Positions 10,601 to 56,279 of a stretch of 64,000 bases of DNA are shown piece by piece. Location of the stretch: NCBI GenBank assembly GCA_032718475.1, contig JAUCBJ010001804.1:1-64000 (forward strand). Reading direction: 5' to 3'. A program made the position numbers and the translations under genes. The notes beneath the pieces were generated by a model, which saw only the letters and a list, made by a program, of their open reading frames with translations, made no database searches and was not told where the DNA came from. How positions within the stretch are numbered: the first letter of the stretch is position 1; the number at the start of each line of letters is the position of its first letter. The stretch is from Nemertoderma westbladi (lineage: Eukaryota > Animalia > Xenacoelomorpha).

Positions 10601-11694
10601 GGTAATTGTTTTTGGCTATAAAATGAGTGTTTTGCTACGTCATGTGGTAATCGATTATCGACAACAACCACAAACTATTAAATATAGAGTCTTTTTACCA
10701 CAGGCGCATATGGAAATCTATCTCATAGTCTATAAATCATGGAATCATAGAATGTTTTGGCACAGGCATAGTGAAATCAACTGTCTGACAGTCCAGAAAT
10801 CAGCAGTCTGACAGTTTGAAGAAATACATACATAAAAATTTACAATAAAAGTCATTAAATGGACAACAAAAGTCATTATGCATAATTCGTAAAAAAAAAG
10901 TGACAAAAAAAGTCAAATAAATTGACATAAAAAATCACTGCCATACAAATATACAAAAGTGGGCTAAAGTTGCCCCATTCTACAGTAGTCAAGTTAAACT
11001 GTATGACTCAAACAATTGATGCGAACCAGCTAACGATAGACATAAAAGATTATAACCATTACCGGTACTGCCTGGGATCTGGGGATATTGGAAAAACTTG
11101 CTCTTCAGCGTAACGGTCGTGACATATTTTCCATCCACTCATTTAGTCATTACAATACAATGCTATTATAAAAAATTTTTTTATTGTACATTATTTAACC
11201 GACATGGCTAATTACTACATATATATATATAAGATTCTGAAAAACATATGGCATTGTCAGTTTGGTAATGATAATGGTCATGCCATTTTGGTTTGTATGT
11301 AATTATGCCAAAAATATTGAATTTTTGGCATTTTTAAAATCACATTTTGTCAGCTAGTAGCCGTCTGGCAGTTGTATGTCTGTACGTACTGACGTACCCA
11401 TATCCAACACCAGCACCCAGGGCTGCAGGGAGCCAGGTACAACCTGACAACTGTACAACTACGCACTGGCACTATACTTCTGTTTCTGTACTTGTGTACT
11501 GTCCCACTCTGCACTGTCACCAATTTTGAAACCACTTTTGCATATTGCACTACGGTCAGACGGTACAGCGATAAGTACAGAAGTAACTAGGCCTAGAGCT
11601 AGGCCTAGGCCTAGAGCTAGTACAGTAGAACTAAGGCATAGAGCTGTTGATATAGACAGATCTGCAGATAGAGCATCTGAGCATAGAGTTACAC

Positions 11695-12249
11695 ATGAGT
11701 TCCACGGACGAAAACGGTGCATACGAGGAAACTTCCATGAATGGAACAAACCTGAGTCAAATAGACCGGAACAGAAACCGGTTCCCGTGCTGTATTGTGT
11801 GGACACCGATCCCATGTATCACATGGCTGCTACCCTGCATCGGTCACATGGGTATCTGCACGTCCACGGGTGTTATTCGCGACTTTGGCGGGCCGTACTT
11901 CGTATCGGAGGATTGTATGACATTCGGGAACCCGACCAAGTTCTGGCGGCTGGACCCCGCGCTCATCAGCAGCAATTCGCGTTGGGACACCGCCGTACAC
12001 GAGGCTTCAGAGGTTTACAAACACAGGATGCACATTCTCTGTTGGGATAATTGTCACTCCCATGTCGCATACGCGCTCAACCTAATGGAATACAAACGAA
12101 GTCATAGATGGAATATGATTAATCTTTGGTTTCTTATGCTTATCCACGGCAGATTCACGAGTGTAGGCGGTTTCATTAAAACCTGGGGTCCTTTCATCGT
12201 TATCGTGCTCATTATAACTGGGGTGGTTGTCTTGCTAAAGAGCTTGTAG
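11695..12249 (+). CDS. TMEM222: Transmembrane protein 222 (RTE1/DUF778 family), single coding exon
   Basis: 184-aa ORF with family motifs RFPCCIVWTPIP..WLLP.IGHMGICTS.GVIRDF.GPYFVSED.M.FG.PT and WD.AV..AS..YK.RMH.L..DNCHSHVA.ALN, plus a C-terminal TM helix. Confidence 0.93.
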   Translation: MSSTDENGAYEETSMNGTNLSQIDRNRNRFPCCIVWTPIPCITWLLPCIGHMGICTSTGVIRDFGGPYFVSEDCMTFGNPTKFWRLDPALISSNSRWDTAVHEASEVYKHRMHILCWDNCHSHVAYALNLMEYKRSHRWNMINLWFLMLIHGRFTSVGGFIKTWGPFIVIVLIITGVVVLLKSL

Positions 12250-26640: not shown

Positions 26641-27167
26641 TAAGCAAGCTGACTTAGTCTGGCTCCTTACACTACTACTGTTACGATATATGGCGCTGTG
26701 TACTAGAACAGCCCAATATACAGTATAGAGCGATTAGATAAGTTATATCGATGTACAGCATTCATTTGGTAAGGAAAATGAAATACACGAGTTTATATTA
26801 TTCATCCGATTTTGTACAGTATGTACCCTTACGTATGTAATTTTATAATAAAACCTTAGCATATTAAATTATGGTGGCAAACTTTTGTATAACATTAACA
26901 CGAATTTGCCGTTTATTGACATTGACTGAACCTAATGTGTATTTGTATTAATTTCCTTTATATTTCCCTACAAACTGATGTTGTACTAAATTAATGCTGA
27001 ATGTGCTTTAATAATCGCGAAATTAATGCTACGGCCATAAACCTATAAGCCCACCAAGACAGATTTATTACCATATATGGTAATGATTTGAGAAATGGGG
27101 AAGCATAGGGCTATAATCCGGCTCTCTCATTGGTTTAGTTATTTTAGGTTGGTCTAATGGTAGTAGG

Positions 27168-29063
27168 TATAGAATTATATTCCCTAAATGCCGTGGATTT
27201 TCAAAATTTTATTTTATTCGAATTAACTTTGTAAAGGATTGCTTTGAGTTCTCATTCGTATTTGTTCTATCATTTGTACGCCTATTGGTCAAGTGGTTCA
27301 GTAGCTCAGTCGGTAGAGCGTTGGAAATTATATGTGTAGTAGGTATTGAGTTCGAATCCTAGTAAGTGCGAATTATTTTTTGTGCAGAACTTCAACTCAT
27401 TTAAATTGACCGCTACAAATTAATTGCATTTGTCTGTACCAATGAGACTGTAGTTATTTGATTGTAACCAATGTCGTGCAAGTTATATATTAGCTGGACC
27501 AATAGCTATCTTTAAAACCCTGTTAGAACCTATAGAACAATCGAGAATTTTCTCGATTGATTGCAGCACAAATTTGCTATATAAAGGTGCGATTTCGTTC
27601 ATTAGTTATCTCTCTCTCTCAATTACTCTAACCATATTCGTATCTCTGAGTTATCTAATATTTGTTTATTCTGTCATTAGTTTTCAGATTACATTTTATA
27701 TTATTATCTGCAATAAATTCAGAAATACCGCTATCTGCTTTTCTTTACCATGATTCACTACGGTGAACAAACCTAAGGGACAGGATGGCCGGCTAGAGAT
27801 CGGGCCGCAGCAATGAACGGGAACATCACGGGAATGTAGACAAGAGACAACCCGCAATACCATCTCAGTTATTCGCCCATCGCCTGAAAGGTTAGACAGC
27901 GTTCGACGCCTTGCTACCTAAGTGTAAGACCAAAAGATCAAAAGGTAGAAGTAGTGACACGCTGTGAGCCTAAAATTACATCTTAGGGACTGTACTGTCT
28001 TGATTCAGGAAAACCCACAGTAGACCTTCATATTCCTACGGGGGGAGAGCGCAGGCAGATACTAGTACGCAGATAGGACGTAGGCACACCGGTACGAAGC
28101 ATACAAATTGGTAGGGTGCAGCAAACTGTACGCCTAACTCTTGCTAAGTACAGGTGCGTTTGCGACTATTTGCAGTACAACGGTGTCCATTGCATTAGAA
28201 CTTGTAGGCTAGGGGGGTTGCTGTGTTTTCACCTGAATTGGGATTGTACCGTTCAGGCGGTAGGGCAGTTTACAACTAGGCGCAAATAAATTGAGGCTAT
28301 TAGGGATACTAACATCTACCGTGTCCCCGCCAACGCCCTAATAGGAAGTCACCCAGCCTACCTAGGTGACTAAAATTCTAGATAGGACGCCAGGATAGCT
28401 ATTAGTAACTGTATGCCTACAGTAGTAAACTAACACATCTTTTCTTAGTATCAGGGACCTGGTACCTAAAATTGCCGAATTCTGGGCGTAGCATTAACCT
28501 TATGCCTGAATTTGAGTCCTGGAAATACGCAAGAGGGGAAGGAACCTTATCATTCGTGAGTATTGGACCTACAAGTTGCAAAATTAGAATATTCGTAAAA
28601 TGCACACCGTACCCAGTAATTATATATGTGAAGGAGCAAAACTGCTTTTGACCGTTCAGAATTAATGCACGCGCGTTAGAAATTATTTACACCTCAAAAT
28701 ATATAAAATTAACTTTCGTCCTTACTGTGTTTTGCCCGCTAGTTAGACATCTCCAAATCTCTGCCTCTGTATCTAGCTAGCGTCTCTTTGCCCAACCATA
28801 TAAATCACACCGCGGCAAAGTATACGAGCCCCTTAGTCCGTCAGTGAGTCAGCCTGATTTTAGGATTCGCTGCGCGGGATTTTGTTTTATCGAAGTTTGT
28901 CTGCTCGTAGACTGTTTTCTGCCTCACCGGTTATAAGAGATCGATACTGCAATATATTCGCTTACTTAGAGTTTACTGTTTTGGTGAGAAGGTCGGATTT
29001 ATGATTTGATTCACAAACTTTACAGTAGGATATTGCAGGTATTGTTACCGTCTCTTCCATATA
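27168..29063 (+). repeat. 5' LTR of element B (1896 bp)
   Basis: Matches 42195-43799 plus 47813-48103. TATA-like ctatataaagg at about 27577, AATAAA at 27712 and 28285. Confidence 0.92.
27295..27368 (+). promoter_or_regulatory. tRNA-derived sequence with Pol III A and B boxes inside the LTR (second copy at 42322-42395)
   Basis: A box TAGCTCAGTCGG (27302-27313) with an intact D stem GCTC/GAGC, and B box GAGTTCGAATCC (27348-27359). Acceptor and anticodon stems do not pair, so it is not a functional tRNA. Confidence 0.7.
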
Positions 29064-29074
29064 GTAGGAATATG
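29064..29074 (+). promoter_or_regulatory. Non-tRNA primer-binding-site-like sequence of element B (GTAGGAATATG)
   Basis: Abuts the LTR end defined by the TSD and is a perfect reverse complement of CATATTCCTAC at 28029-28039. Confidence 0.7.
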
Positions 29075-29871
29075 TTTTACTGAACTACGGTTCGGTAGGA
29101 CTAAAGTTATTTGAAAATTTTGTATTTTGAGGTAAAAATTTGTATTTGATTAGCTAAGTGCTAATTTTTTGAAATAAAATTTGATTTGAACCGCGTGTAA
29201 ATATTTTGGAATTGAATACCGGTGTTTAAAAGGGTTTAAATACCATATTGTACCGGTACAAAATTTTCGTAAAGTAAAACCTAACTCTTTTGTTTTTCAG
29301 GATTCAGAACTCATTTCTAGACTGTAATGGGAGCAAGACCGTGTTTAGCAAGTTTGGGAGATAGATAACTCAACAACTTTGTTTGGGAAAATCGCGTTTC
29401 GTCCGCAACGTTAAAAACGGAAAGGTTCACGTCCGGTTTGTATCTGGGAATCTGTTTTTCTGGAGAATTATTGGAGTGGGTGAGTTCGAAAAGTTGCATA
29501 AATAAGTTAGGCATTACCGTATTAGTTAAAATTTATTGTGGGTTCCACTGTCTCAAGTATTTATGCATTCCGTATGATTTCTTTGTTCATTGCTGAATTA
29601 GTCCGTATTATTGTATTTAATTTACCTTTTTTGATAACGCATATTGTTATCCGATTTATTTGTTATAAAATTGGCCGCTAGGCTAATTTTATTATATACT
29701 TATTCCGTGACATTTATTTGCTGTAAAATTGGCCGTTTAGGCTAATTTTATCCATCTGCTATAAAATCGGCCGGTAGGCTAATTTTATATGACTGTAATT
29801 AGTACCGTTTAGATAAAATACGGTAAGTTTGATACTTTGACACTCACTTTACTTGACTTACAACTACCGAA

Positions 29872-32800
29872 ATGAGTGACAAACAAGACTATACGAAAAA
29901 TACACAAACCGACTATGACTCATGCGACGGAGATAAGTCAGCAGCGGAAGAACAACAGGGGAAGACTCGCGAGCCTACCGAACCTACACCGTGTGCGTCA
30001 CCAGTACATCCAACGGGAGTACCGGATGCCGTAGTACGAGGCGACGGCAGGACCGAGGACTTTCTAACTGTTCCGCAACCTAGATACAGGGAAACGGACA
30101 TGGTAAGTTCAGCAGGAAGCCAGGAGAGTGTGGTTAGAAGCGTCGGTGGATACATGGCGCATATTACCAGGAGTATTGGAGAAGGTCATCGCATATTAGA
30201 CGAGTTGACCGCTCCGATGTCTCGATTCGAGTTCTACACCCTCCAGGTTAGAGTGCAAACTAGAGTACACAAGTCCGTAGATAACCTAATTGGTCTACAG
30301 GATCTAGCTAGACAGAGACAGGACATGGATACTCAACTTAGAATCCTCGAGAAACTAATGATCGCTAGAGAGAAACTGATTCAGTTTAAGTCGACGATTA
30401 GGCAGATACAACAGGAACAAGCGGACCAGTTGTTAGGTGAGTCAGTTTCGGACGAATTATTACAGCCCGAGGAAGAACAGGAACTGTACCGACTGGATGG
30501 ACAATTGAAACATCTGACGGACCACTTACGTATGTGCGGCCAAGACGTCGGCGATTCGGAAACCGTGCCGGAATATACGAGGGAAACTTCACCCGTACGA
30601 ATCGAATCGGCACCGGGAATACTGGACCAATCGTTAGTGAGTATTCGCAGCGAAATTGGCGAGATAAGTATAGTGACGTCAGAAATTTCCAGACAGCAAC
30701 AACAGCATGACAGACAACAAAGGGAAGCTGAGGAACAAGCTCAACTGTTGACGGCACAAGCAGCCGTACAAGAAGAAAAACTACGCGTTGCGGATGTTGC
30801 AAGAATCTCTCATCTGCAAGAACAAGCCGAGTTGGAAGCGGCTGAGATGGAAAGGTTGGAGCTAGAAATAGCACAGCGAACAGCGGCAGCTGAGTTAGCG
30901 CAACGAGCAGCAGCAGCGGAACTAGAGCGACGAGCAGCAGCAGCGGAACTAGAGCGACGAGCAGCAGCAGCGGAACTAGAGCGACGAGCAGCAGCAGCGG
31001 AACTAGAGCGACGAGCAGCAGCAGCGGAACTAGAGCGACGAGCAGCGGAGTTGGAAGAACACAAGCGAGTTTCGGAAGCAAGAGCTGAAATGAAAAAACG
31101 GCAAATAAAGGCTCAATCAGCGATAAGACAAGCGGAGCTCGAGGCGCAACAACGACAGACGGAACAACGCGAGAAGGAAGTTAAACTTCATTTCGAACTC
31201 GGGAAGAAGGCGAGAGAATTAGCCAACGCGAAGGAAGATCTGGATCTACAAGCCCGCGATCGATCGATGAGATCTCGAGACGGACACGATCTAGACCAGT
31301 TAGAGGTAAGGCACCGCCAAATCCAGGAACGAATGAAGGAAGGTTCGGTAGGGGCACCTGGACGAGAAAGACAATTAGTTAAAGACTTATGTCAAAGATT
31401 CCCTCAGGTAACTCCTATGTTTGCACCGGTTACGACTAAGGAACCTGTTTCGATTGCTGGTAGTAGTAATATTTCTCCTATCCATGGTGCGACGGAACAC
31501 AGGTTTGTTATTCCGGACAAGTTTACACCGCCAAGAGCAACATCATCGCCTATTCCAAAAGTCAAGGTAAGTAACCCGCCGATTACAGATCGTAGTAGTT
31601 TATTAGTCGGACCTGCACTACTGACGACTAAACAGGTGAGTCCACCTTTGACGCCAAAACCTGTTACACACTACGCTTACCCAATGACGTTTAGGCCAAC
31701 AAGGCCTTTGGATTCAAACGCTGTCGTCCGACCACCGGTCCAGTTTGCATCGCAATCTACGACTTCGAGGAAGACTTGTGAGCCTACCGAACAACGGAGA
31801 CCAGTGGATACGCGACCGTTCAACCAGTTTACATCGCAATCTACGACTTCGAGGAAGACTTGCGAGCCTACCGAACAACGGAGACCAGTGGATGATGTTC
31901 CAAAACGAAACGTTAGAATTCGTACGACGCAACGGACGCGAGCACGTCGACCACCATATCCAGATGATAGTAGTACTTCGAGCGAATCGGATTACCCGAA
32001 ACGCGAGGTATTTAGAACAGGGGCGGCCGATGAATATAAACGCGAGCGTTCAGACAACTCCTTTGTAGACAATCCTCCACAGAATACACCAACACAGAAG
32101 GCGTTACAACCAACGGACGCAATCAGTACACAACAGTTCGCCGACATCCTGCGACCAGTTGTTAACAAGTTGGCTCAGATCGAGGAGCGTCTGGAGGAAG
32201 TTCACACTGACAGTTCGAGAAATTCCGAATTCGAACACAATAGACATCCGAAGGAACCACAAAGACCGGTACCTTCAAAACACACCTCGTATCAGGGAAA
32301 AGCGCCCAGAAGGGAGAACATCAACCAGTGTACCAACCAAGGACGCGAAACTCTGAACGTTGCCGAGGAGATAGCGAAATTCGCAGCCAGACAAGGATTG
32401 CCGGTACAACAACCACCGAAGTTTTCCGGTAGCTCAAAACACTGGCACACTTTCGTAGACTATATCGAATCCCAGATCGCCGTGTGCGCCTTTACATCAC
32501 GGGAGAAGTTCAATTACCTGCTCCAAACGTTGTCAGGAGAACCTAAACGTTTAGCGGAGACCTTCGTTGGTGTACCGGACGCCTTCGAACTAGCGTACGA
32601 TCGTTTAACTTCGATATACGGAGGTACAGTCAGTATGGCCAGGTCAGTAATAGAGGAACTCTGTAAGGGAGGGGCTATTACTAAACCCGTCGACTTATTA
32701 AAGTTGGCCGACGAGATAAAGAACGCTATCACTACTTTAAGATCCATTGGACAACTTGACTACGGGAATACCCCTACAGTCCTATTAAAGATCATAGGAC

Positions 32801-35592
32801 GACTCCACCATCGACTTCGTCGGGAGTGGAGAAAGATCGAATACCAGCGAGAAGAGCGGGGTGGATTCTTAAAATTAGAAGATGTGTACCTTTTGATATC
32901 CAGGGAGGCAGTAGTAGAAACTCGATCTAACTACACTGACCAGCACATCGTGGCAGAAGGGATCACCTTGCCATCCTCCAACCGACAAAAACCCCAGACA
33001 ACATCCACCAAGACGGCCACTTACGCCACATCGACGGAAACCCGACAATTCTCGGACGGAAGTAGGGTATCCGCGCCCATTGGGATAAAACAGACTAGAC
33101 AACAACTCAGTACCGACTTCAGCGGCTGCCAATACTGCGAGCATCTAGGCAAGCGGTATATCGGTCACAAGTTGAGGGGTTGTCGACAGTTTCGCGAGTT
33201 GAACTCGGAAGAACGACGGCTGCAGATACGGCCACTGGACTCTTGTTGGCGGTGTACGCGACACGGACACGTTCGCAAGGATTGCCCAAATACTGACACT
33301 TGTCCATCCTGTGGACGCAACCACGACGGTCTGCTCCACACAGACAGCCACACGCCGACAAAACGCTTCGCCAGGGAACACCCGGAAGCAGCAGCGAGAT
33401 GTGATGCGGCCTACAGAAATCGAGAATCGAAAACGACTCCAACCTTCGTGACCCATATTGAGGATTGCTTCTCAGAACAACCCGGATCGTCGGACGAAGA
33501 GTCAGAAGACGACGACGTATATTCGGATGGAGATGAACAGCCATCGATCGCGCTTCTGACTACTGACCAACTGAAGGGATTCAGTGTAATTCCGATTAAG
33601 ATTACTGGCACAAAGGGGAGTAAGAGAATCTACGCTATTCTAGATTCAGCCTCATCTCACAGCTACGTGGACGAAAAGATAGCTGACGTCGTGACGGATC
33701 TCAGACAAGGTAAGCGCGTCAGTTATACCGTAAGTAGTATGCACGGACAGCGTGCAATACCAGTGACACGAGTTAAGTTGGACTTAGACTCTCTTCTTCC
33801 AAAATCGCAACACAGCGAGAGGGAGAGGTCTTTGTTACCCTTCAAGGATCTGACTTTTGCGGCCACAAAAGACTTTAGTAACCTACTAGGTCCGGTCCCA
33901 GAACAATCCTTGGAGGACCGTAAGTATTTCAGACACCTTGGTGTACCTGAATGTCCTGTCAATTATAGATCGGTAGCAATGCTGATCGGGACGGATCAAT
34001 TCAACCTACATCAGGTGTGGGAAACCAGACCATCGGCAGTCGTAGCGGGAAACGCATACGCCTGTAGAACGCCGATAGGGTGGTATACTCGAGCGCCTGT
34101 GCGCACACTGGACATAAGTGACGAGGAAGACGATGTACAAAGTACATGTAGTTTATTAACTACAAATTCAATTCATTCCTTTTCACACGACGTGGACCAT
34201 ACTACACTACAGTCGACAAAACATAACAGACGTGTAACTAGTATGATAAGTCACAAGGAGCAGCTAACCCACCAGGTGAGTTTAGAACTTGGGGAGAAGA
34301 CGAGTCAGCTAGAGATTCCATCGACGACAGATGATAGGCTTGCGAGTCTACCTACCCCAACAACCTCAACAATACCCGTCGATATCGATGATGACGCGTT
34401 GAGAAATCATCAAATGGAACAAGCCGCATTGGACAAAGAATTAACGGAGAAGACTATCAGGTGGTTAGAACTAGATACAGCTGAACCTGGTAGCTACGAA
34501 CCTTGTATGTCGGAACAGGAGAAACAATCTCTGAAGATCATGGAAGATACTATCCGCCAGACGAAAGACGGACATTATGAGGTGGGGATGTTATGGCGTA
34601 GCCAAAGTCCTAAACTTATAAATAACTACCCACTAGCCTTAAGACGTCTACACTCAATACGGCAACGTCTATTAAAGGACGAGAAAGCCCATCTACAGTA
34701 TAACACTCAGATGGAGACGTATTTGACTAAGGGATACGCTATCCGAATGACTAACCCAAAGATAGTGACTAACCAGACATACTACCTGCCACATCACTAT
34801 GTGAGACACCCCGACAAACCAGATAAAGTACGCGTAGTCAATGACTGTGCGGCTCTGTTTGAGGGAATGTCCCTCAATAGTGAGTTGATGGATGGACCAA
34901 ACATGAATAATTATCTTATGGGGGTGATTATGCGCTTCCGTCAGCGTCAAGTAGCTTTTACTTGCGACGTTGAAGCGATGTTTCACCAAGTGAAAGCGTT
35001 AGAGCAAGACAGAGACAGTTTGAGGTTCCTCTGGTATCCGGAAGGAGACTTAAGTCTACCACCGGCGACTTACCAAATGCAAGTACGCGTTTTCGGTGCC
35101 AGAGACAGCCCAAATTGTACCATGTATGCCCTAAAACAAGCCGCTAGGGATCAGAAACATCTATATGACCCAGAGATAATTAAAATCGTAGAACGTGACT
35201 TTTACGTAGACGACGGTTTACAGAGTTGCGACACAGTAGAACGTGCTACAACAGTAGCACATCAATTACGGGACTGCTTAGCGGGCGGAGGTTTTAACCT
35301 CACCAAATTCGCCTCAAACAGTGCCGAATTAGTAGACTCATTCGGAACGACTGAGCGTGGAGGTGGTGACATAGACCTTGAGCCGATTGTTCGATCCATT
35401 AGGATTCATCAGTCCAATAATACTGCAAGCCCGCATTTATATGCGCAGTATTTGGAAAGATGGACTGACATGGGACGAGCCGATCTCATCAGACCAAGTG
35501 GACTTATGGAAGACCTGGGAGGCAGAATTATCTTCGCTAGAGGATTATTCCATACCCAGAGTCTACTTTCCATTACAAACTACATTTCCTGA
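29872..35592 (+). CDS. BEL/Pao Gag-protease-RT polyprotein part (goes out of the pol frame at about 35378)
   Basis: Coiled-coil Gag with (AAAAELERR)n, PPKFSG...W..F...EKFNYL capsid-like region, three Cys/His knuckles (CQYC..H..C, CWRCTRHGHVRKDC, CPSCGRNHDGLLH), protease AILDSAS, RT motifs YYLPHH, KVRVVNDC, DVEAMFHQV and FYVDD. Confidence 0.93.
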   Translation: MSDKQDYTKNTQTDYDSCDGDKSAAEEQQGKTREPTEPTPCASPVHPTGVPDAVVRGDGRTEDFLTVPQPRYRETDMVSSAGSQESVVRSVGGYMAHITRSIGEGHRILDELTAPMSRFEFYTLQVRVQTRVHKSVDNLIGLQDLARQRQDMDTQLRILEKLMIAREKLIQFKSTIRQIQQEQADQLLGESVSDELLQPEEEQELYRLDGQLKHLTDHLRMCGQDVGDSETVPEYTRETSPVRIESAPGILDQSLVSIRSEIGEISIVTSEISRQQQQHDRQQREAEEQAQLLTAQAAVQEEKLRVADVARISHLQEQAELEAAEMERLELEIAQRTAAAELAQRAAAAELERRAAAAELERRAAAAELERRAAAAELERRAAAAELERRAAELEEHKRVSEARAEMKKRQIKAQSAIRQAELEAQQRQTEQREKEVKLHFELGKKARELANAKEDLDLQARDRSMRSRDGHDLDQLEVRHRQIQERMKEGSVGAPGRERQLVKDLCQRFPQVTPMFAPVTTKEPVSIAGSSNISPIHGATEHRFVIPDKFTPPRATSSPIPKVKVSNPPITDRSSLLVGPALLTTKQVSPPLTPKPVTHYAYPMTFRPTRPLDSNAVVRPPVQFASQSTTSRKTCEPTEQRRPVDTRPFNQFTSQSTTSRKTCEPTEQRRPVDDVPKRNVRIRTTQRTRARRPPYPDDSSTSSESDYPKREVFRTGAADEYKRERSDNSFVDNPPQNTPTQKALQPTDAISTQQFADILRPVVNKLAQIEERLEEVHTDSSRNSEFEHNRHPKEPQRPVPSKHTSYQGKAPRRENINQCTNQGRETLNVAEEIAKFAARQGLPVQQPPKFSGSSKHWHTFVDYIESQIAVCAFTSREKFNYLLQTLSGEPKRLAETFVGVPDAFELAYDRLTSIYGGTVSMARSVIEELCKGGAITKPVDLLKLADEIKNAITTLRSIGQLDYGNTPTVLLKIIGRLHHRLRREWRKIEYQREERGGFLKLEDVYLLISREAVVETRSNYTDQHIVAEGITLPSSNRQKPQTTSTKTATYATSTETRQFSDGSRVSAPIGIKQTRQQLSTDFSGCQYCEHLGKRYIGHKLRGCRQFRELNSEERRLQIRPLDSCWRCTRHGHVRKDCPNTDTCPSCGRNHDGLLHTDSHTPTKRFAREHPEAAARCDAAYRNRESKTTPTFVTHIEDCFSEQPGSSDEESEDDDVYSDGDEQPSIALLTTDQLKGFSVIPIKITGTKGSKRIYAILDSASSHSYVDEKIADVVTDLRQGKRVSYTVSSMHGQRAIPVTRVKLDLDSLLPKSQHSERERSLLPFKDLTFAATKDFSNLLGPVPEQSLEDRKYFRHLGVPECPVNYRSVAMLIGTDQFNLHQVWETRPSAVVAGNAYACRTPIGWYTRAPVRTLDISDEEDDVQSTCSLLTTNSIHSFSHDVDHTTLQSTKHNRRVTSMISHKEQLTHQVSLELGEKTSQLEIPSTTDDRLASLPTPTTSTIPVDIDDDALRNHQMEQAALDKELTEKTIRWLELDTAEPGSYEPCMSEQEKQSLKIMEDTIRQTKDGHYEVGMLWRSQSPKLINNYPLALRRLHSIRQRLLKDEKAHLQYNTQMETYLTKGYAIRMTNPKIVTNQTYYLPHHYVRHPDKPDKVRVVNDCAALFEGMSLNSELMDGPNMNNYLMGVIMRFRQRQVAFTCDVEAMFHQVKALEQDRDSLRFLWYPEGDLSLPPATYQMQVRVFGARDSPNCTMYALKQAARDQKHLYDPEIIKIVERDFYVDDGLQSCDTVERATTVAHQLRDCLAGGGFNLTKFASNSAELVDSFGTTERGGGDIDLEPIVRSIRIHQSNNTASPHLYAQYLERWTDMGRADLIRPSGLMEDLGGRIIFARGLFHTQSLLSITNYIS

Positions 35593-38500
35593 CAACTTGG
35601 AACTACATTGTTTTTCTGACGCCAGTGACAACGGTTTTGGTGTAGCAGCGTACTTGCTCAGACAAGTAGACTCAGAAGAATTCGACGTTTCGCTCATTAC
35701 TTCTAAGGCTAAGACCATGCCTACTAAGTATATGACGACACCACGAGCTGAGCTACAAGCCGCAACCCTGTCAACCACCATCGTGAACCTCATACAGACA
35801 GAACTACAGTCAAGTTTACAGATATTTTATTGGACTGACGCGACGTTGGTTTTATTTTACATAAACAACGACACACTTGAATTCAAGACATTCGTAGCTA
35901 ACCGTCGCGCAGAAATTCTAGACCGTTCAATAAAAGAGGATTGGCGACATTGTCCCGGACCACAAAACCCAGCCGATATTGCGTCGCGAGGAATGATGCC
36001 TGAGGAATTCTGTAAACCGGAAAACAAATAATTTTGGCAACACGGACCCCAATTCTTGCAGAAATCGATACAACATTGGCCTCCGTTATACGACAACAAA
36101 TCTAACACCATCCCTAAGGACGCCGAAATCAAGAAACCAAAAAGGGGGAAGGCTAAGAAAAGGACAACGGCGGCAAAACTCAAGAAAAAACCGAAGGCGA
36201 AATGGAAAGATATAATTTCAAAGGTCAAGAGAGGAAGACTTGCGAGCCTTTCTACACCAGACATATCGCCAGACGGTCAAACAGACACGTTACCAGACGG
36301 TCAACCAGACGTTTTGCCAGACATGTCACAAAATGTTCTACCAGACACTAGTGACATACTGACAAATAGTAAAGCCGCAGTTTCTCTATTGGAGCGGCCT
36401 TCTATTGACAAACAACCAGATATGTTACCAGACGTATCGCCAGACACATTACTAGACAGTCGACTAGACATTTTGTCAGAAACATCACAAAATGTTCTAC
36501 CGGACATTAGTAATGTATTGACTAACAGTAAAGCCGCAGTTTCTCTATTGGAGCGGCCTTCTATTGACAAACAACCAGATACGTTACCAGACGTATCACC
36601 AGACACATTACTAGACAGTCGACTAGACATTTTGTCAGAAACATCACAAAATGTTCTACCGGACATTAGTAATGTATCGACTAACAGTAAAGCCGCAGTT
36701 TCCCTATTGGAGCGGCCTTGTATTGACAAACTACCAAATTTGACACACTTGAGCAACCATAAGCACGGTGAAACCTCATGTATTACAGATGTGGGTAGTA
36801 CCTACGCTAATGTAAATACAGGTGTTACTCTGCGCTCAAGAGACATACCAAACTTGCAACCTATGGTGAGACCTGGGATTAATGTCGGCAGAAAAATAAA
36901 TTTACCGAAACCCAGTGACCCCATAGAGTTCAAACCACCATTAACGATCGACTTACAAAGTACTGACAATCAAGGTAAGAAGACGAAGAAGGACAAATTA
37001 CTTGTAGACCCGGACGGATCAACAGTCAACAAGGGAATACTTACCGGCGGACCCGTGGGCCCTTCTAGTAATTCAAAACCTTCCAAAATCTCCATTGACT
37101 TACCTGATGACGTCACAAATACCTACGTCGACCGTATTGTAAACCTAACAGATTCTTGGACGAATGCTTGCCGAAAGTTAGCGTGGATTGTACGTTTTGT
37201 ACAATACGTTAAAGGCAAACGTGACTTTACACGTCGACTTACATTGGCTGAGATTGACAGGTGTGAAATTAAATTAATTCGCCATTACCAACTGCGATAT
37301 TTCGCACGCGAATTCACATCTATAAATCAAGGTCAACCAATCAAGTCGTCACCAATACTGAGTTGGAGTCCGATTATTTATAATGGCTTAATTTGTCATA
37401 AATCTCGGCTTCAAAACATTGACCTTAACACAAACTTTAGATACCCTATAATAATACCGCAACACCACGAACTACAACGTGCAATGATACTGGACGCACA
37501 TTTACATCTGAAACACGCTGGAAGACACCACTGTCTTTCCTACCTACGTACAAGATTTGTATTGATTAGACCTAGTAAAGCGTTAAGTTCAGTGACACGT
37601 ACGTGTATTATTTGTAAAAAGGTACATTCTAGAAAAGGTACCCAAGAAATGAGTGAACTTCCACAAGCACGACTTCAAGCATTCAGACCACCTTTTACAG
37701 AGACTGGAATTGATTGCTTTGGTCCCATACATACGAAACGTGGACGTATACTAGTAAAACGCTGGGGACTGATTTTCACATGTATGTCCAGTAGGGCAGT
37801 TCATATTGAACGTGTGATGGATCTTTCCACCAACGCGTTTATACTAGCACTGCGGCGATTTATCGCTAGACGCGGACTAGTAAAATGCTTGTACTCAGAC
37901 CAAGGGACAAACTTTGTTGGTGCTCGGAATGAGATTGCTAGAGCCTTTAAGAAATTAGATCATGATCAAATCTCGAACGAACTACAACCTCACAAGATTG
38001 TTTGGAAGTTTAATCCTCCAGATAGTCCTTGGAGAGGCGGAGTCTGGGAGAGACTGATTAGATCTATAAAGACAGCCATGGCAAAGGTCATTCCAGTAAA
38101 CCACATATTGACAGACGACCAACTGACAACATTGTTTGTTGAAATCGAGGCAATACTAAATACTAGACCAATAGTATTAGTACCCGATGACAAACAATCT
38201 CAGTTTGCTTTGACACCGGCACACCTGCTTATGCAGGCACCGACTACATTGACACCTATTTCTATTCCAATAGAAAGCGATAGCTACGGTAGAAAAGCGT
38301 GGAAAATCACGCAACTACTAGCTAACAAATTCTGGGAAATATGGCAAAACCATTATTTGCCCTCTATTTCTGCCAGAACAACATGGTACAATAACACCCG
38401 CGCATTAAAGCCGGGAGATCACGTGCTGTTAGCGGAAGTGAATCTAAAAAGACGCTTCTGGATAACAGGTGTAATTTTAGCCACACATCCATCTATGGAT

Positions 38501-38635
38501 GGAGTGACAAGAACTGTGACGGTACGGACAATTGACGGTCGTACAGTAGACAGACCGACTCAACGTCTCGTACTTCTTGAAGAGACTCGTAACGAGTCTG
38601 GAGACTACAAATCTCCACCTAATACTAGTAAATAA
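35378..38635 (+). pseudogene. BEL/Pao RNase H, linker and integrase, with an in-frame TAA at 36029-36031
   Basis: RLFDPLG, LHCFSDAS, PRAEL, FYWTDA and NPADIASRG, then K*FWQHGPQFL in the same frame as 36056-38635. HHCC (H..KHAG...CIIC) and integrase GIDCFGP, YSDQGTNFVGA, GGVWERL, LTPAHLL. Confidence 0.9.
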
Positions 38636-39299
38636 TTAGGAGTTTACAAATAGATTTCCACGTACCTGTACACCGTAGTAAGGACAGCGGTAGAATTCCA
38701 TTGTCTTTATATGTGAACATTGAGGGTAGTACCCTTATGTGTCACATAGGAGCGGGATTTGTAGGTATAAGAAATGGAATTCTACTTGGAACTCACAATA
38801 TTGAGACATTTTCGAAAATTTTAGACAATCCATTTGGATTTGAAAAATTTTTAAAATTTTCTCCAGTGAATAGATTTCAGGGTACAGTCGGGTGGAACTT
38901 AAAAATTAGAGAAACAAGAGAGGAAGACTTGCGAGCCTTTCTTAAAATTTTAATTAAATTTTACACGGTCTTGTTTCAATAAGTTACGTCAATAAATTGA
39001 CTCCCCTATATTTATTACTAATTCTTGATTGCTTATTTTCTGATAATAGTTTGGGATCAAAAAGTGAGTATTTTAGACTCACAGCCAGTTTAGCCCAAAT
39101 TCGTTTTTATTTCGGCAAAAAAATTTTAGATAAGAAGCAGCGTGTCATTAAAGAAACCCTAGATCTTAGGCTATGGGTAGGAGGTTAGAGCGTTGTCAAG
39201 CCTAAAGGGCAGACGAAACTCTCACGTCTCCTCACAACTAACTACAAACTCTGTTGTATTCCCTCTAGTAGTAATGATTATGTAACTACACCCCTAATT

Positions 39300-40873
39300 A
39301 TGGAGAAAGGGATACAAGGAGAGCCGAGATGGGGATATGATATCCAAGAGGAGGCAGCAGCGCCATTCGAAAGATTTGGAGCCAAGGACTATACTATATT
39401 TGGTATAAAGGAATTATCGGAAAGTACAGCGAAACTCGCGAGAACTAAATATGACTCAAATGTATTAAAGAGAAGGCAAAACGCATTAAACGAAAGAATC
39501 GAAAGTTTGCGCCAAACCTTCAACGAACTTTACCCGTACGACGCTTTGTGTGATACGGGAGACATTAGCGAAGACCCCGATACTGAAATTAGTCGTTTGT
39601 ATCATACCATGCAATACCTGAAGGCGCACGAACCTATGCCCGCGGTACGCGATGAATTCGATGGAATGCATATTTACAGACGAACTCGAGGGGACGATAG
39701 AGAAACCAAGGAAGCATTTTCAGTTTATAAACTTTATTATCAATGCGGTTCTTGTATGCGCGAACAACGAAATGCGATTCCGATGCGTTTGAATAAGGAA
39801 AATCCCGAACCGATATTGGCGAGGTGTTCGAACCATCAACAACTATGTTACCCTATGAAGGAGAACGTATCGTGGAGATTACGGATGAATCACGGCAGAC
39901 GCGCGCGCCTATCGGTCACCTTGGTGATGATTTCGAAGTAACTACTACGATCGCTGACGATCCTTTAGAGGAACTTCTTGAGATAGAAAGGAACCTCCCG
40001 AAGAAATCTCAGACGGAGATTCGACAACTTGAAGCAACAGATGCTATAGTTTGTATACAACCTTCAGAAACCTACCAACCCATAGACCCAGATGATTACG
40101 ATTATAGTGTGGGAGGAAGCGCTCGACCGATTGGAGATCTTATATACGAACGAGTGTGGTACCCTGCCAATACGATGTGTAGTAAATGTGGCGTCGCTGG
40201 ACATCATATGACAAAGTGCAGTGGAAAGCACATTACTACGACTCAGCTAATCTGTGGATGGTGTGGGGATCAAGGGTCTCATACCTTTTATACTTGCTGG
40301 AGATTTATGGCTCAATGTACTTACTGCAATATAAAAGGACATCGAGCATCTGAATGCCAACTAAGAGACATACCTTATGAACACGAATCTGTAAAACTCG
40401 TGAGGAAGTTATTTGATGAGTGGGAAGATTTAGCCGACGAACATGTATCGGCACAAAGAAGACGATTTCCGATGAGGGCGCATCTTGGATTTTGGGCGGT
40501 AAATCCCCAAACGATGATGTCGGAAGGATATATCTCCGCTATGCCCCAATATGACGAACTTATCGAGGTTGTCGATATTTTGCCCCACGACAGCGGATTC
40601 CGAGTAGTGCGCGAGTATCTACTACAGATTCACCCGGATAACAAAAACACGTGGAATTTTCAGAAAGTCGTTAATCGCATTACGTATGGTGAATTCGATC
40701 GTTTCCGAACTGAAAAACGGAATAAAGGAGCTTGGTTAACCGTCACATGGGCGTACCGAGCCGCGTTTTACCATAAACGTATACGAGCGAGCGTATTCGA
40801 GGAAGAGGAGGTCCTAGAGGCGACAAATATACCAGCCACTCCGGTTGCGCCGTCTGCACGTCACCCTCGGTAG
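39300..40873 (+). CDS. Accessory ORF(s) downstream of integrase: 39300-39941 and -1-frame 39824-40873 with three CCHC-type zinc knuckles
   Basis: CSKCGVAGHHMTKC, CGWCGDQGSHTFYTC, CTYCNIKGHRASEC. No obvious signal peptide or TM segment, so not env-like. Confidence 0.7.
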
Positions 40874-43800
40874 GACGGACAGGGTAGGATCATACGGGTC
40901 CAGAAAGTGGGCCAACAATTTATTAATTATCAATTATTAATATAGAAGAACGCAAGGGAGTTGAGCCGACCATTCGAGTTACTCGGGATATGGTATCGCT
41001 TCCAAGAGAACCAGTAGGAGGATCGGGACATACACCAGCTGATCAACAGGGGGCGCAAGCTACTCTTGGGCCTGCGTCGTCCGCTTCTCGCGCGTTCCCA
41101 GACGTTCTACCAACTGTAGTGACAACTGATCGGTCACGAGGAATCGGTCGAGGTTTTGGGATGCTAAATAGACGAATTTGCGAGGAAATAGTCGCACCGT
41201 CTCTCAACGTCCAAACGAAACCAGTGACTCGCCCCACAAGTCCCATATCGCGAGCAAAGTCACCTGTGCGCAGTTTTCGAGGACGCGGCAGGGCTCGATC
41301 CACTAAGCGATAAAAGGGAGGGCAAGGGTGGACGGAAGACTCGTGAGCCTTTCTTATGATTTGTGATTTATTTGAATTTATATTTATATTTGTGTTTATT
41401 CCGAACTTAAGCAATTTGTATTGTTCCGAATTTATGAAATTTAGAAAGTTTATATTTAGAAGGAACTTATATTTGAAAGATTTATGTTTCATATTTGAGA
41501 TGCAAAAGGAGTTTATATTATTCTAAACTTATGCAGTTTATATCTATATTTAGTAAGAATTTATATTTTATATTTGTAATTATTCCGAACTTATGCAATT
41601 TATATTGTTCCGAATACTATGCAATTTATATCTTATAAGCAGTATTTGTATTTACAGTGAAATAGAAAGTAAGAGTAGATGGAAGACTCGTGGGCCTTTC
41701 TTATAGTTTCATTTGTAAAGTGTTATATTTTGTATTTAGAAAGTTTTATAGTCAGAAAGTTTTGTGCTTAGAAAGACTCATATTTGTAATTATTCCAAAC
41801 TTATGCAATCTACATTTAGTTACGAAAGTATTTGTAATTACTTGAATTTATGCAATATTTGAGATGCAATAGTAGATGGAAGACTCGCGAGCCTTTCTTA
41901 TTGTTTTCATTTATTTGTATTTGTAATTGTTTGAATTTATGCAATATTGAGATGCAATAGATTTATATTGGTGAATTTAATTTAGATTTATATTGTACTT
42001 ACTTAGTAAAACCTTAAATACGTAAAGTTTGAATTTGTAATTATTTTTGTATCTAATCATTACGTAGAAAGGAAGTATTGTTTGAAATTTAATTTGTAAA
42101 TATGTAAGTACGCCCTAAGTATTCTATAGTTTGATTGATTATTGGTGAAAACCGTATATTTTATGCACGATAATATCCTGTTTTCATGGAGCGGTATAGA
42201 ATTATATTCCCTAAATGCCGTGGATTTTCAAAATTTTATTTTATTCGAATTAACTTTGTAAAGGATTGCTTTGAGTTCTCATTCGTATTTGTTCTATCAT
42301 TTGTACGCCTATTGGTCAAGTGGTTCAGTAGCTCAGTCGGTAGAGCGTTGGAAATTATATGTGTAGTAGGTATTGAGTTCGAATCCTAGTAAGTGCGAAT
42401 TATTTTTTGTGCAGAACTTCAACTCATTTAAATTGACCGCTACAAATTAATTGCATTTGTCTGTACCAATGAGACTGTAGTTATTTGATTGTAACCAATG
42501 TCGTGCAAGTTATATATTAGCTGGACCAATAGCTATCTTTAAAACCCTGTTAGAACCTATAGAACAATCGAGAATTTTCTCGATTGATTGCAGCACAAAT
42601 TTGCTATATAAAGGTGCGATTTCGTTCATTAGTTATCTCTCTCTCTCAATTACTCTAACCATATTCGTATCTCTGAGTTATCTAATATTTGTTTATTCTG
42701 TCATTAGTTTTCAGATTACATTTTATATTATTATCTGCAATAAATTCAGAAATACCGTTATCTGCTTTTCTTTACCATGATTCACTACGGTGAACAAACC
42801 TAAGGGACAGGATGGCCGGCTAGAGATCGGGCCGCAGCAATGAACGGGAACATCACGGGAATGTAGACAAGAGACAACCCGCAATACCATCTCAGTTATT
42901 CGCCCATCGCCTGAAAGGTTAGACAGCGTTCGACGCCTTGCTACCTAAGTGTAAGACCAAAAGATCAAAAGGTAGAAGTAGTGACACGCTGTGAGCCTAA
43001 AATTACATCTTAGGGACTGTACTGTCTTGATTCAGGAAAACCCACAGTAGACCTTCATATTCCTACGGGGGGAGAGCGCAGGCAGATACTAGTACGCAGA
43101 TAGGATGTAGGCACACCGGTACGAAGCATACAAATTGGTAGGGTGCAGCAAACTGTACGCCTAACTCTTGCTAAGTACAGGTGCGTTTGCGACTATTTGC
43201 AGTACAACGGTGTCCATTGCATTAGAACTTGTAGGCTAGGGGGGTTGCTGTGTTTTCACCTGAATTGGGATTGTACCGTTCAGGCGGTAGGGCAGTTTAC
43301 AACTAGGCGCAAATAAATTGAGGCTATTAGGGATACTAACATCTACCGTGTCCCCGCCAACGCCCTAATAGGAAGTCACCCAGCCTACCTAGGTGACTAA
43401 AATTCTAGATAGGACGCCAGGATAGCTATTAGTAACTGTACGCCTACAGTAGTAAACTAACACATCTTTTCTTAGTATCAGGGACCTGGTACCTAAAATT
43501 GCCGAATTCTGGGCGTAGCATTAACCTTATGCCTGAATTTGAGTCCTGGAAATACGCAAGAGGGGAAGGAACCTTATCATTCGTGAGTATTGGACCTACA
43601 AGTTGCAAAATTAGAATATTCGTAAAATGCACACCGTACCCAGTAATTATATATGTGAAGGAGCAAAACTGCTTTTGACCGTTCAGAATTAATGCACGCG
43701 CGTTAGAAATTATTTACACCTCAAAATATATAAAATTAACTTTCGTCCTTACTGTGTTTTGCCCGCTAGTTAGACATCTCCAAATCTCTGCCTCTGTACC

Positions 43801-44175
43801 AAGGCGACCTTTACTAACAGGCCTTGCAGCCCAAAAAACTGCAGAATTAGCGTAGGCCTAACATTTTGCAGTAGCAGAACAAGGCCATGCAACACGCTGA
43901 CACGTCAGCTTTATTTTTGGATTTATAAGTTCTGGTGCTGAAATAAATATGTTTAATTATAATTAATCTTAATTGCTTAATTTTGTGTATTTTAGCATTG
44001 TCCTCACGGTGTACTGTATTAATACTGCAATTCCTTAGATAGATTGCTATTTCCTGATTTCTATAGCCTAGGCTTCTGTATTTTGTATTTGATAACTACG
44101 GTAAGCTAAATATTCTGGAATTTCGAATATTAATACAATACTATCTGACTATTAATACGAATAATACTGGTCGAT

Positions 44176-46655
44176 ATGCCTCGCAAGTGTTGTGTTGGAT
44201 ATTGCCGATCTAACTACAAGGGAACTCAGTCAAATCCACAAGCGGAGAGTGTTAGCGTTTACGGTTTCCCCGCCAACAATGATGATCGTCAATGCTGGTT
44301 GGCTGCGTTACCGAACATCATTGATAAAGTCACAAAGACAATTGGTATTTGCAGAAAACACTGGCCGGACAGCACCAAAATGAAAGTTGTTCGCGGTGGT
44401 TCCTTAGTGCCGAGAGATCCTCCATCGGTATTCACTGCAGCGCCGGCGTCAGTTGTTCCCCCCACTCCTCCGGTATCGAGATCAACCGATCGATCGCGAC
44501 CATCTTCGCGGAATATTCTTCCCGATGAGTTGTCCGAGTTCCTCTCTGGCGACAAGATCGTCGCAGATACTTTTTCTATGGAGTTTAAGATAAAGTACCG
44601 GTACTACTGTGGCGTAGAGCTGGATATTTTAAACCGCGGCGGTACAACTCTATTGGCGATGCACCGGGAGCGGACTGGGGCTGTTGCGAAGTGGACCCTC
44701 GAGTTTACCATCATTGACGATAAGGTTGAGTTCGTTTGTTACTCGGGTCTCGCTCGAATTAGTATCCCATTCTTACGCTACAAGACCCGCGTAAGTTATT
44801 GGTCGGAAGTTACAGAAGTCATCAACTTCCTCAATCATTATGAAGAGGAGAATCCTCGCTTCCTCTTCCTGTATCGCCAAGTTGCTCTGCTGAACACCCC
44901 ACGGAACGGAGTTGTCTACACCTCTGGCGATATCTGCAATGCTTTCCAGTGGTATTGCTATTCAACCAAACTTTATAATATTCTAAGGGAGCAGTTGAAA
45001 CTCCCTAGTCCGTAATTATAGATGAAATTCATGTGAAACAATCACTCCAATACCACGGTGGAACGGTTTTTGGACCAGCTGCCGACTATCCCGAAAAACT
45101 GGCCAGCACTGTGTTGGCATTTATGGTTAATTGCTTGTTCGGGGGACCTGCGTTTGTTATTGGACTTCTTCCATGTTCGAACTTAAATGGAACATTCCAA
45201 TATGATATGTACCTGAAGTTCGCAAAGTCTCTGCACGAAACTAATGCGAGAGTCATCGCTGTTTTATGTGATGAAAATTCGGTTAACCGGAAATTCTTTA
45301 ACATGTTTACACGATATGTTAATGATGTACCATGGAGGGTTCGCTCCCCATTCGATTCAGCGGAGCCGTTATTCCTTATTTTCGATCCGGTACACATCCT
45401 AAAGTGTATCCGAAACAACTGGTTGTCCGAGAAATCGAGAGAGTTGGAGTTCCATTCCCCAGGGCAGATCGACGCTGCTTGCAGATACACTGCACGATGG
45501 GGCGACTTGGAGGAGGTATGGAGATCCGAGTTTGATGGTATTTTTAAACTGTCGGAGTTCACCAAAGACGCTCTGTATCCCGCCAAGGTACAACTACAGC
45601 GTGTTTCCCTCGCTCTAAAGGTGTTTTGTGATAAGACTGGTGCCGCTCTGCAAGCCTCTGCCCATCGCACGGACTCTACCGCTGAGACAGCCAATTTTAT
45701 AAACATAGTGGTGAAATGGTGGAAGATCGTCAGTTGTCGCTCTATTACTGCGCATATCCATAAAAGAGATCCGGACCGCGCATTTATTGAGTCTCCTAAT
45801 CACCCCGCTATGAAGTATTTGAAGGATATGGCCCAACTGGCTTTGTATATGGCCCCTATATCAAACAGTAACCGAGTGCGTTCATTGACCAAGGAGACTT
45901 CATATGCACTTTACCACACCAGCAGCGCATTAGTCGCCCTCACTGAGTATCTTTTTTCGCCCGAAATAGCCGAAGTGTTTCAACACAAGTATATTCTCCT
46001 TGGAAAATTTATTTCCGACCTACTAGAGGGATATTTTGGCCATATTCGCCAAGCTTGTGGTGGTAATTATTACATTTCCACTCAGCAAGTAATATTATAT
46101 ATAGTATATAGTATCGACAACACACGTTTACTTGCCTCGTTAAACCAACTCCAGCGAGAACCGACTGCTTCCCAGACTCACAGCTGCTCGCTTTGTTTTA
46201 TACCTCTATCCGAGAAGGAAGTTGAACTCATGGATACTCTTCCATTGTTGACCCAAGATTTGGACTATGACCTTCTTCAAGCGATTGTTTATGTTGGAGG
46301 TTACCTTACCCAACAAAGTGCTTGCAAGAGCAGCAGCCCACCGGTTTCTCGCAACACCCGGATAGCGGAATATACTGTAGTTTTAGATCGCGGCGGCCTT
46401 AAGCTCCCATCCGACACAATGACCTACTTCGTATCTCTTTCCTACTGCTTCTTCCAATCCACTGGAAAAGCATTTTATTGTCGTCGACGCCTCACGTCTG
46501 CACTTACAAATATTCGGCGATTATTCCACCTGGAAGAAACTACTAATAACACTATTGATACCCCACGTAGACTTGCCAATGTGTTCCTCAACAACAGCTG
46601 TAAACAGTCGATGACAGACATTTCCACCCTGCAGAAGAGGGCAAAGTTTATTTAG
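44176..46655 (+). pseudogene. P-element/THAP9-like transposase, frameshifted at about 45012
   Basis: THAP domain MPRKCCVGYC...FP...W...ICRKHW...PPSVF. Catalytic region DEIHVK, CDENSVNR, FDPVHILKCIRNNW, QRVSLA, SDLLEGYFGHIRQACGGNY. The two ORFs are in different frames. Confidence 0.88.
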
Positions 46656-46696
46656 CGAACTCTAGGCCGTGGATCACCCTACACCCCCCCCCCCCC

Positions 46697-46957
46697 CCCC
46701 GGTTTATATGGCTTCCAGCACCAGGTCAATCAAAAAGCCTCGCCATTACGAACTCTATCCAGCGGATCCCCCGGTTTATATGGCTTCCGGCACCAGGTCA
46801 ATCAAAAAGCCTCGCCATTACGAACTCTATCCAGCGGATCCCCCGGTTTATATGGCTTCCGGCACCAGGTCAATCAAAAAGCCTCGCCATTACGAACTCT
46901 ATCCAGCGGATCCCCCGGTTTATATGGCTTCCGGCACCAGGTCAATCAAAAAGCCTC
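46697..46957 (+). repeat. 72-bp tandem repeat, ~3.6 copies, in the 3' part of the P element
   Basis: ggtttatatggcttcc... recurs at 46701, 46773, 46845 and 46917. Confidence 0.95.
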
Positions 46958-47220
46958 AACTCTGCCATCCTGCACCACGTTGACGTCGTGGCAGAGCTTA
47001 TAACTGAAATCATAGAAATTTCAGTTAAACTAAGGTTGCAGGATATAATTTAATTATATTAGTAAATGTAATAAATAATTTTGTGTTTATAATAGTTAAA
47101 CACAAAATTGTTTTCTTTCGACAAAAATTTTCTACAAGTTCTAATTTCATAATTTTCCCAGTCCTACTATTTTTGTAAATAGTGAAATTTATTACCTTTT
47201 TAGTTTAAATTGTATTAGCT

Positions 47221-47676
47221 ACTAGAAACGAATCCGCTAGGTATGGTTAGCGCGGTACTCGTCTCAAATTTCAAGTCTCGTTGCGCTCGTCGTGTTTTCT
47301 CTGAAAATATTTTAGTCTAAACGTAGACTAAGGAACCTTTATAACTAAGCAAAGTATCGAAACTGTGCGAGAAAGGTGGTTTAGGGGTATAGATAACACA
47401 TTACTCGTCTCCATTACAAGCCTCGTTGCGCTCGTCCTGTTTTGTATGAAAATATTTATTCTAAATGTAGACTGAGGAACCTTTATAACTATGCAAAGTC
47501 TCTAAACTGTGTGAATACTTTCTGATTTATGGCAGATGGTATTACTACATCGATAGATGTAGATACATACATACACATTAGATACATACAGACATACATA
47601 CTGTATACACACTTAGATAGATAAATACACACCAAAACTCAAAAAAATACCCCGCCTATACGAGACGGGTTCATAA
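47221..47676. mobile_element. Possible Helitron/Helentron-type non-autonomous insert inside the P element
   Basis: ACTAG terminus with adjacent hairpin (ccgcta..tagcgcgg), duplicated ~146-bp core, (ATAC)n microsatellite, and terminal stem-loop cccgcct..agacggg. A related core occurs at about 14815-14860. Confidence 0.45.
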
Positions 47677-56270: not shown

Positions 56271-56279
56271 TACTACAGT

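Follow-up and report, generated by a model that had tools for sequence, protein, structure and literature searches.

Element B and its neighbours

The window, meaning the whole 64-kb stretch of DNA analysed, carries a BEL/Pao retrotransposon, element B, on its plus strand. The 5′ LTR (27168–29063; 1,896 bp) has the ends TATA…TATA, not TG…CA, and two relatives, L001 and L027, likewise end in ATA. Downstream lie the BEL/Pao gag–pol region (29857–38635), two extra overlapping frames after pol (39189–40873) and a short PPT-like stretch (42180–42194) that ends in GG, as do the PPT ends of relatives. The second extra frame encodes three Cys/His knuckle-like motifs; the two frames matched 0 Pfam families and by Pfam are not env-like. 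The 3′ LTR (42195–48103) is split by a P-element-like THAP transposon (43800–47804, plus strand), which has 62-bp terminal inverted repeats, an 8-bp duplication and a 72-bp tandem array.

Pfam domains follow each other in B in the order DUF1759 (PF03564), Pao peptidase A17 (PF05380), integrase zinc-binding domain (PF17921) and DUF5641 (PF18701). The order Gag, PR, RT, RNase H and integrase, the Pao-type domains, the LTR pair with its short target-site duplication and the PPT all place B in BEL/Pao. Its closest RT relatives are Pao-domain proteins (37–49% identity), the named ones being from marine invertebrates. Having Pao-type domains and not a Ty3/gypsy RT and integrase, B falls outside the Tf1/sushi lineage of chromoviruses. 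The ICTV describes Belpaoviridae as having an 18-nt PBS for tRNA-Arg or tRNA-Gly, LTRs of 0.2–1.2 kb and genomes of up to 10 kb (PMC8742986). B resembles this family in domain order and domain families, in its duplication of about 5 bp, its PPT and its extra frame after pol (PMC8742986), but differs in lacking a tRNA PBS, in its 1.9-kb LTRs and in its length of about 16.9 kb without the inserted transposon. In-frame tandem repeats at 30838–31080, 31740–31893 and 36256–36742 (periods of 27, 84 and 159 bp) lengthen gag and the pre-integrase region.

Judged from its sequence, this copy of B is young but broken: young, because its two LTRs differ at 5 of 1,896 sites, and broken, because a frame change between RT and RNase H (35375–35592) and a stop before 36032 interrupt the frame ahead of the integrase. 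The left junction of the insertion is present in run X1 and absent from run X3.

Two further elements lie on the minus strand. Element C (50687–56283) is a truncated relative with about 68% nucleotide identity to B and the sole close one; it has lost the region corresponding to the candidate primer described below, and its GTAGGA motifs near the LTR end are unchanged. Element D groups with B as its sister (support 95) in a quick RT tree, on a long branch, and its LTR end was placed at a CA (62705) from a single LTR. A LINE fragment (56283–57126, minus strand) connects D, at its RNase H region, with what is left of the C LTR, which implies a deletion that took the 3′ part of D and the upstream LTR of C. 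The window also contains a single-frame RTE1/TMEM222-like host gene (PF05608) at 11656–12249.

A post-LTR site matched by its own LTR

The putative PBS of B (29064–29074, plus strand) follows the 5′ LTR directly and is the exact reverse complement of 28029–28039 (plus strand) in the same LTR, a candidate self-primer. We confirmed the letters and coordinates of this match, which the preliminary description had proposed as a built-in primer, and likewise its statement that the PBS does not begin with TGG, the first TGG occurring at 29207, 143 nt further on. The primer 11-mer was found solely at 28029–28039 and at 43056–43066 within the 3′ LTR. B thus has what characterizes Tf1-type elements, namely an LTR segment of about 11 nt with exact complementarity to the post-LTR site. 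An 18-nt PBS for tRNA-Arg or tRNA-Gly is present neither in B nor in the relatives tested, and by sequence such a site seems not to be a defining feature of BEL/Pao. ARAGORN found 0 tRNAs in the 64-kb window, and Rfam gave 0 matches in 27100–29900. At a lowered ARAGORN threshold only, a degenerate tRNA-like stretch appears in U3 (27296–27381, plus strand), which contains sequences resembling an A box and a B box as well as a run of T; it was rejected as a primer source, its T-arm pairing with only 5–6 PBS letters and having a mismatched end. In X1 and X3, an 80%-identical 311-nt contig extends across this stretch.

Dinucleotide shuffles of the LTR reproduced the match in 4 of 6,000 cases at offset 0 and in 20 of 6,000 at offsets 0–5. 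As background, a comparable match no more than 1,896 nt upstream exists at 18 of 12,936 positions in B and at 338 of 62,093 on the whole plus strand. The 8-bp second helix claimed for 28041–28048 and 29051–29058, with two G–U pairs, is present as described, while folding favours a register shifted by two (arms 28041–28049 and 29051–29058, plus strand). In the folded register, a family variant from C to A at 28050 (32–36% of depth in X1 and X3) would provide an extra pair.

The left end of the LTR was fixed with family contigs of X1 and X3 aligned to 27151–27210. A contig of depth 20,500 in X3 begins exactly at 27168, compared with about 30 for single flanks, marking a large family, and depth at 27163–27164 is 31–68 in X1 and X3, the single-copy level. 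The LTR therefore starts with TATAG at 27168 and its targets are diverse; a start at 27166 is ruled out by the family contigs branching at 27168. Copies of GTAGG at 27163–27167 and 48104–48108 (plus strand) form the target-site duplication, and, because GTAGG also makes up the first five PBS letters, LTR–LTR identity spans 27166–29069 and the flanks share 7 nt (27161–27167 and 48102–48108). From the left end at 27168 and a 5-bp duplication, the right end falls at 29063, with symmetric TATA ends. In the preliminary description, the target-site duplication had set the boundary at the end of the 11-mer independently. The register at the LTR end holds, but the independence is lost to the identity of GTAGG with the PBS start: on the sequence, the right end at 29063 rests on the 5-bp duplication of the B copy and is less independent than claimed. 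The end could instead be the CA at 29058–29059, with this copy joined by microhomology; the PBS would then lie 4 nt out, as in several relatives.

A degenerate PBS-like copy lies right after a CA at 29025–29035 (plus strand), possibly an older LTR end, and the same motif follows CA in C. GTAGGA occurs three times near the B LTR end (29017–29104) and six times in C (55336–56132, minus strand), three of them after CA. Contigs of X1 and X4 contain a further short duplication with nine PBS letters. The LTR end may be creeping outward through duplication of a unit made of the U5 end and PBS.

At the target site (27161–27167 and 48102–48109), the right duplication with its neighbours matches B's own LTR/PBS junction over 8 nt, 2 nt match the PPT end, and the 5-bp duplication is clean. 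The 8-mer has a frequency of 6 in 128,000, several of these being the element itself. According to the accessible passages of PMC11042837, in insertions of Tf1 lacking integrase the flank downstream agrees with the first five letters of the PBS and the one upstream with the PPT end, and about half of Tf1 cDNA retains a PBS copy, leading to PBS-like flanks. By analogy, the match of the B target to the PBS start and PPT end parallels the signature of Tf1 cDNA with a retained primer copy, here for one event. Family-wide specificity for GTAGG targets was rejected on the single-copy depth at 27163–27164 and on the finding of only one further flank each in X1 and X3 that seems to agree over at least five letters, about the expectation for several hundred random sites at a frequency of 0.001. 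CCAAT boxes are present in the flanks of B (26950–27162 and 48109–48200), together with AATAAA and a TATA-like box on the minus strand. As the left flank is also a repeat, with a depth of 1,200–2,300 in X1, B may have inserted into the LTR of another element.

Pairing between LTR and PBS ends sharply at 28029, beside the sole initiator-plus-DPE site of the LTR. This candidate internal promoter, P2, has its initiator A at 28030, where the primer starts (the complement itself begins one base before), and a DPE-like motif at 28057–28061 (plus strand), that is, +28 to +32. The initiator, DPE and P1 calls are based on consensus patterns. Only 1 of 17 initiator matches in the LTR, that at 28030, is combined with a DPE, as are 8 of 762 on the plus strand of the window. 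The initiator motif overlaps the primer letters, so the DPE alone is independent of them. From sequence, the combination at 28030 points to a primer at the RNA 5′ end, as in Tf1. Upstream lies a second promoter candidate, P1 (27578–27610, plus strand), with a TATA box and a predicted start at about 27604–27610. AATAAA occurs upstream of the primer (27712–27717) and again 245 nt downstream of it (28285–28290), both on the plus strand, and the first has the better downstream context.

The contiguous layout at an initiator recurs in D, where 10 nt at 62870–62879 (minus strand) are complementary to the post-LTR site 62701–62692 and begin one base ahead of an initiator A (62878); the primer helix of D was not predicted by folding. 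In C, no contiguous primer complement was found on the strand of the element. A spliced primer for C was rejected and left uncounted, the best matches being 8–9 nt with poor donors and no null.

Folding of an RNA from 28030 to 29110 places the primer/PBS helix outermost in both the MFE and centroid structures, with pair probabilities of 0.85–1.0, and the second helix is present in both. The mean pair probability of the primer helix is 1.0 with the folded RNA ending at 29110, 0.6 at 29200 and 0 at 29320, where the second helix is gone as well. It is also 0 for RNA starts at 27978, 27891 and 27606, and the prediction loses the helix once the RNA begins at least 50 nt further upstream. In these models, the folding support is fragile and depends on the stretch that is folded.

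A candidate GT–AG intron of 1,410 nt (27891–29300, plus strand) contains P2 and would remove both primer and PBS. The joint 27890/29301 occurs in one X4 contig (depth 249.8, with 22 letters on the short side) and is absent from X1, X3 and X5 contigs; the acceptor at 29300 is conserved in C. Run X4 is on record as a guessed DNA run, and its assembled contigs reveal no starts, ends or levels. The GT–AG joint together with uneven cover suggests that it is an RNA run. If so, an X4 contig that covers 27972–28156 at depth 775 would indicate longer transcripts spanning the primer site.

Self-complements in BEL/Pao relatives

Our scan for relatives covered 64 loci with 32–48% RT identity to B. A further scan of genome contigs gave 2 loci, neither with an LTR pair, and viral contigs gave 0 matches for RT and 0 for a motif common to B and C. 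A 5′ LTR end could be defined for 16 rows, each of which was compared with 100–200 random internal positions. We scored self-complements starting no more than 6 nt from the LTR end, either contiguous or across an LTR-intron splice; GC donors were added after L054 had been seen. Excluded were L051, whose junction is rearranged and gave nothing, the near-copies or partial loci L037 and L006, L013 because of its tandem repeats, and every locus lacking an LTR end. The LTR end of L059 was set by homology to the L040 3′ LTR, L015 and L014 are two near-identical loci combined into one row, and L003 was scored by inspection (14 nt).

In a first, contiguous-only test of 11 elements, B and D alone were positive. 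With spliced primers included, 11 of 16 rows, representing 9 of 11 family groups including B, have a self-complement of 9–14 nt no more than 6 nt from the LTR end, with nulls of at most 3 in 200; outside the window, this holds for 7 of 9 family groups. Contiguous matches are those of B (11 nt, null 0/100), D (10 nt), L059 (11 nt) and L005 (10 nt), the last three each with a null of 0/200. Across a splice junction, L007 pairs over 14 nt, L001, L044 and L045 over 12 nt each and L063 over 10 nt, all with nulls of 0/200, followed by L028 (9 nt, null 2) and L015 with L014 (9 nt, null 3). Not significant were L054 (9 nt, null 6), L020 (7 nt, null 16), L058 (7 nt, null 18) and L027 (8 nt, null 21), and in L040, whose 5′ junction is deleted, no complement was found. 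None of the tested relatives has TGG in its first 6 nt. L054 had been labelled TGG-primed in a first tree, a reading we dropped, as it carries a splice-type complement like that of L044; its LTR intron (L054:1990–2075) has a GC donor, compared with GT in L044 and L045.

In L007, a single contig, the 5′ LTR is spliced (1–254) whereas the 3′ LTR is unspliced and retains the intron (6935–7265). Its 14-nt pairing is formed by the splice junction and the PBS, and at least 83 nt precede this junction, which implies that BEL/Pao primers can be internal. Within one clade of the quick RT tree (support 100), exon end and PBS change together in three families (ATAT/ATAT, ATGT/ACAT and TAAT/ATTA), the compensated positions being the last four exon letters and the PBS letters facing them. 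The covariation sought in the preliminary description is therefore present in a related clade, but not in B's own family, for which C, having lost the primer region, yields none.

Priming of B and of other LTR elements

Self-priming of B in some form is, by the sequence, probable. The claim stands as the best reading in light of the DPE site, the parallel in D, the 7 of 9 outside groups and the compensatory clade; its uniqueness was overstated, the feature being common to a BEL/Pao branch. Three origins had been offered for the primer. An alternative start at TCATATT fits best, and internal cleavage is a candidate too given the at least 83 nt upstream of the L007 splice junction, but a natural RNA 3′ end finds no poly(A) signal near the primer, AATAAA occurring only at 27712 and 28285. 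The chances are about even, on the sequence, that the primer consists of the first nucleotides of an RNA capped at 28029–28030, with the upstream promoter giving a spliced mRNA.

All steps beyond the sequence match are inferred, as follows. The internal initiator/DPE promoter would start the genomic RNA at 28029–28030, making its first 10–11 nt the primer, which would pair with 29064–29074 across a 1-kb loop with the second helix assisting. The RNase H of the element would cut between 28039 and 28040, as in Tf1. RT would then copy U5 from 29063 back to 28040 and transfer to the identical sequence at the 3′ end of the RNA, which is possible only if the first AATAAA (the equivalent of 27712) is read through in the 3′ LTR. 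The upstream TATA promoter would yield a spliced mRNA without primer and PBS, translatable but not copyable. Against a 5′-end primer stand the fragility of the folding, the unpredicted helix of D, the better context of the first AATAAA, the 5 of 16 rows that are not significant (L027, L054, L040, L058 and L020) and the distance of the relatives, at only 32–48% RT identity. The unchanged GTAGGA in C would be explained as well by a host primer.

The same complement could act from within a longer RNA: an unspliced P1 transcript, or the 11-mer copy of the 3′ LTR, would pair with the PBS and be cut on its 3′ side only, leaving a long primer attached upstream. The stretch before the primer-completing junction of L007, the clear TATA box of P1 and the X4 contig across 27972–28156 agree with this, but we consider it unlikely, as the helix has probability 0 in RNAs from 27606, 27891 or 27978, P1 transcripts include the splice donor used to remove the PBS, the exact spacing of the DPE from 28030 is left unexplained and a natural 3′ end at the primer lacks a poly(A) signal. 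Alternatively, a host RNA fragment might prime, either half of a tRNA or some other small RNA with the complement of GTAGGA at its end, and the LTR match would then be a helix that hides the PBS for regulation or packaging. This would account for the constancy of GTAGGA across the three copies near the LTR end of B and the six in C, where the letters that follow differ; half-tRNA priming is known in copia lineages, in the accessible part of PMC6317226. A full tRNA is excluded by the missing TGG, however, a masking helix need not stop exactly at the LTR boundary, and in the relatives the PBS reads altogether differently and in each case the element's own LTR matches it, with compensatory changes, which makes a host fragment improbable.

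It is similarly hard to credit that the match is chance or a relic in the B family and that the true priming site lies elsewhere. This is one window of many, 0.14–0.5% of positions carry such a match, the right LTR end could be the CA at 29058–29059 if joining was by microhomology, and 2 of 11 family groups have no significant match. Yet chance would have to produce the register at the LTR end, the DPE spacing, the second helix, the parallel in D and the outside groups together, and a family as young and large as this one (5 of 1,896 sites; insertion in X1, not X3) needs a working primer, for which no other candidate was found.

Self-priming, the reading we prefer, is an established mechanism elsewhere. 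In the passages available from PMC4600332 and PMC6317226, Tf1 is the demonstrated case, and Tj1, Tcn1 and TAR copia elements are predicted ones. As far as the excerpts of PMC7175516 and PMC4600332 go, RNase H of Tf1 cuts after base 11, with a primer likely at the RNA 5′ end, and in Tf2 the choice of start site decides whether the RNA contains the self-primer and hence whether it can be copied (PMC5341516, in part). B resembles Tf1 and Tf2 of S. pombe, Tj1 of S. japonicus and the Tf1/sushi group in its 11-nt LTR/PBS complement and missing tRNA site, and, within what those passages state, may share with Tf1 and Tf2 a 5′-end primer, start-site choice and PBS-like target sites. Unlike Tf1, B has BEL/Pao proteins, a 1.9-kb LTR and a primer that lies 862 nt into it and 1 kb from the PBS, and is known here from sequence; it also has a second, upstream promoter candidate and an intron candidate that removes primer and PBS. 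B likely works like Tf1 without being a Tf1/sushi member. With at least 10 nt of complement 0–5 nt after the 5′ LTR, B also has the feature by which, in the accessible part of PMC6317226, Tcn1 (Ty3/gypsy) and TAR/Houba/Osr-1 (Ty1/copia) were recognized; these belong to other superfamilies and to plant and fungal hosts.

For Cer7 of Caenorhabditis elegans, a BEL element, a self-encoded tRNA-like primer has been suggested. That primer would be a separate tRNA-like RNA, in contrast to a fold-back, and the tRNA-like stretch of B does not match the B PBS. A literature search found no paper on the Cer7 primer. PMC8742986 presents BEL/Pao replication as primed by tRNA and little understood. In the full texts searched, which take in few subscription papers and neither the original papers on Tf1, Cer and Anopheles BEL nor Repbase notes, we found no paper on BEL/Pao self-priming. 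The accessible portions of PMC3601003, PMC3286476 and PMC13524379 contain nothing on it, those of PMC3118150 have no passage on primers, and neither of two 8-mers searched for is present in the 7 supplementary files of PMC13524379.

The feature is real and is probably self-priming; the mechanism is that known from Tf1, to which B adds a new layout and not a new principle. A broader reading joins these observations: self-priming would be normal in a large BEL/Pao branch and come in two forms, with an LTR-intron-spliced primer or a contiguous one as in B and D; B would split its RNAs between the TATA promoter (a spliced, primer-less mRNA) and the initiator/DPE promoter (a self-priming genome); and a primer copy at the cDNA end could guide insertion towards PBS-like targets despite a 5-bp duplication. 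As a whole, we regard this combination as possible but doubtful. If these elements self-prime, priming without a tRNA would be found in each of the three main LTR superfamilies, the many BEL/Pao elements lacking a recognizable PBS would be explained, and PBS-based LTR finders would miss or mis-score such elements. Its predictions are exact and cheap to check: a cap at 28029–28030 and an RNA end at 28039.
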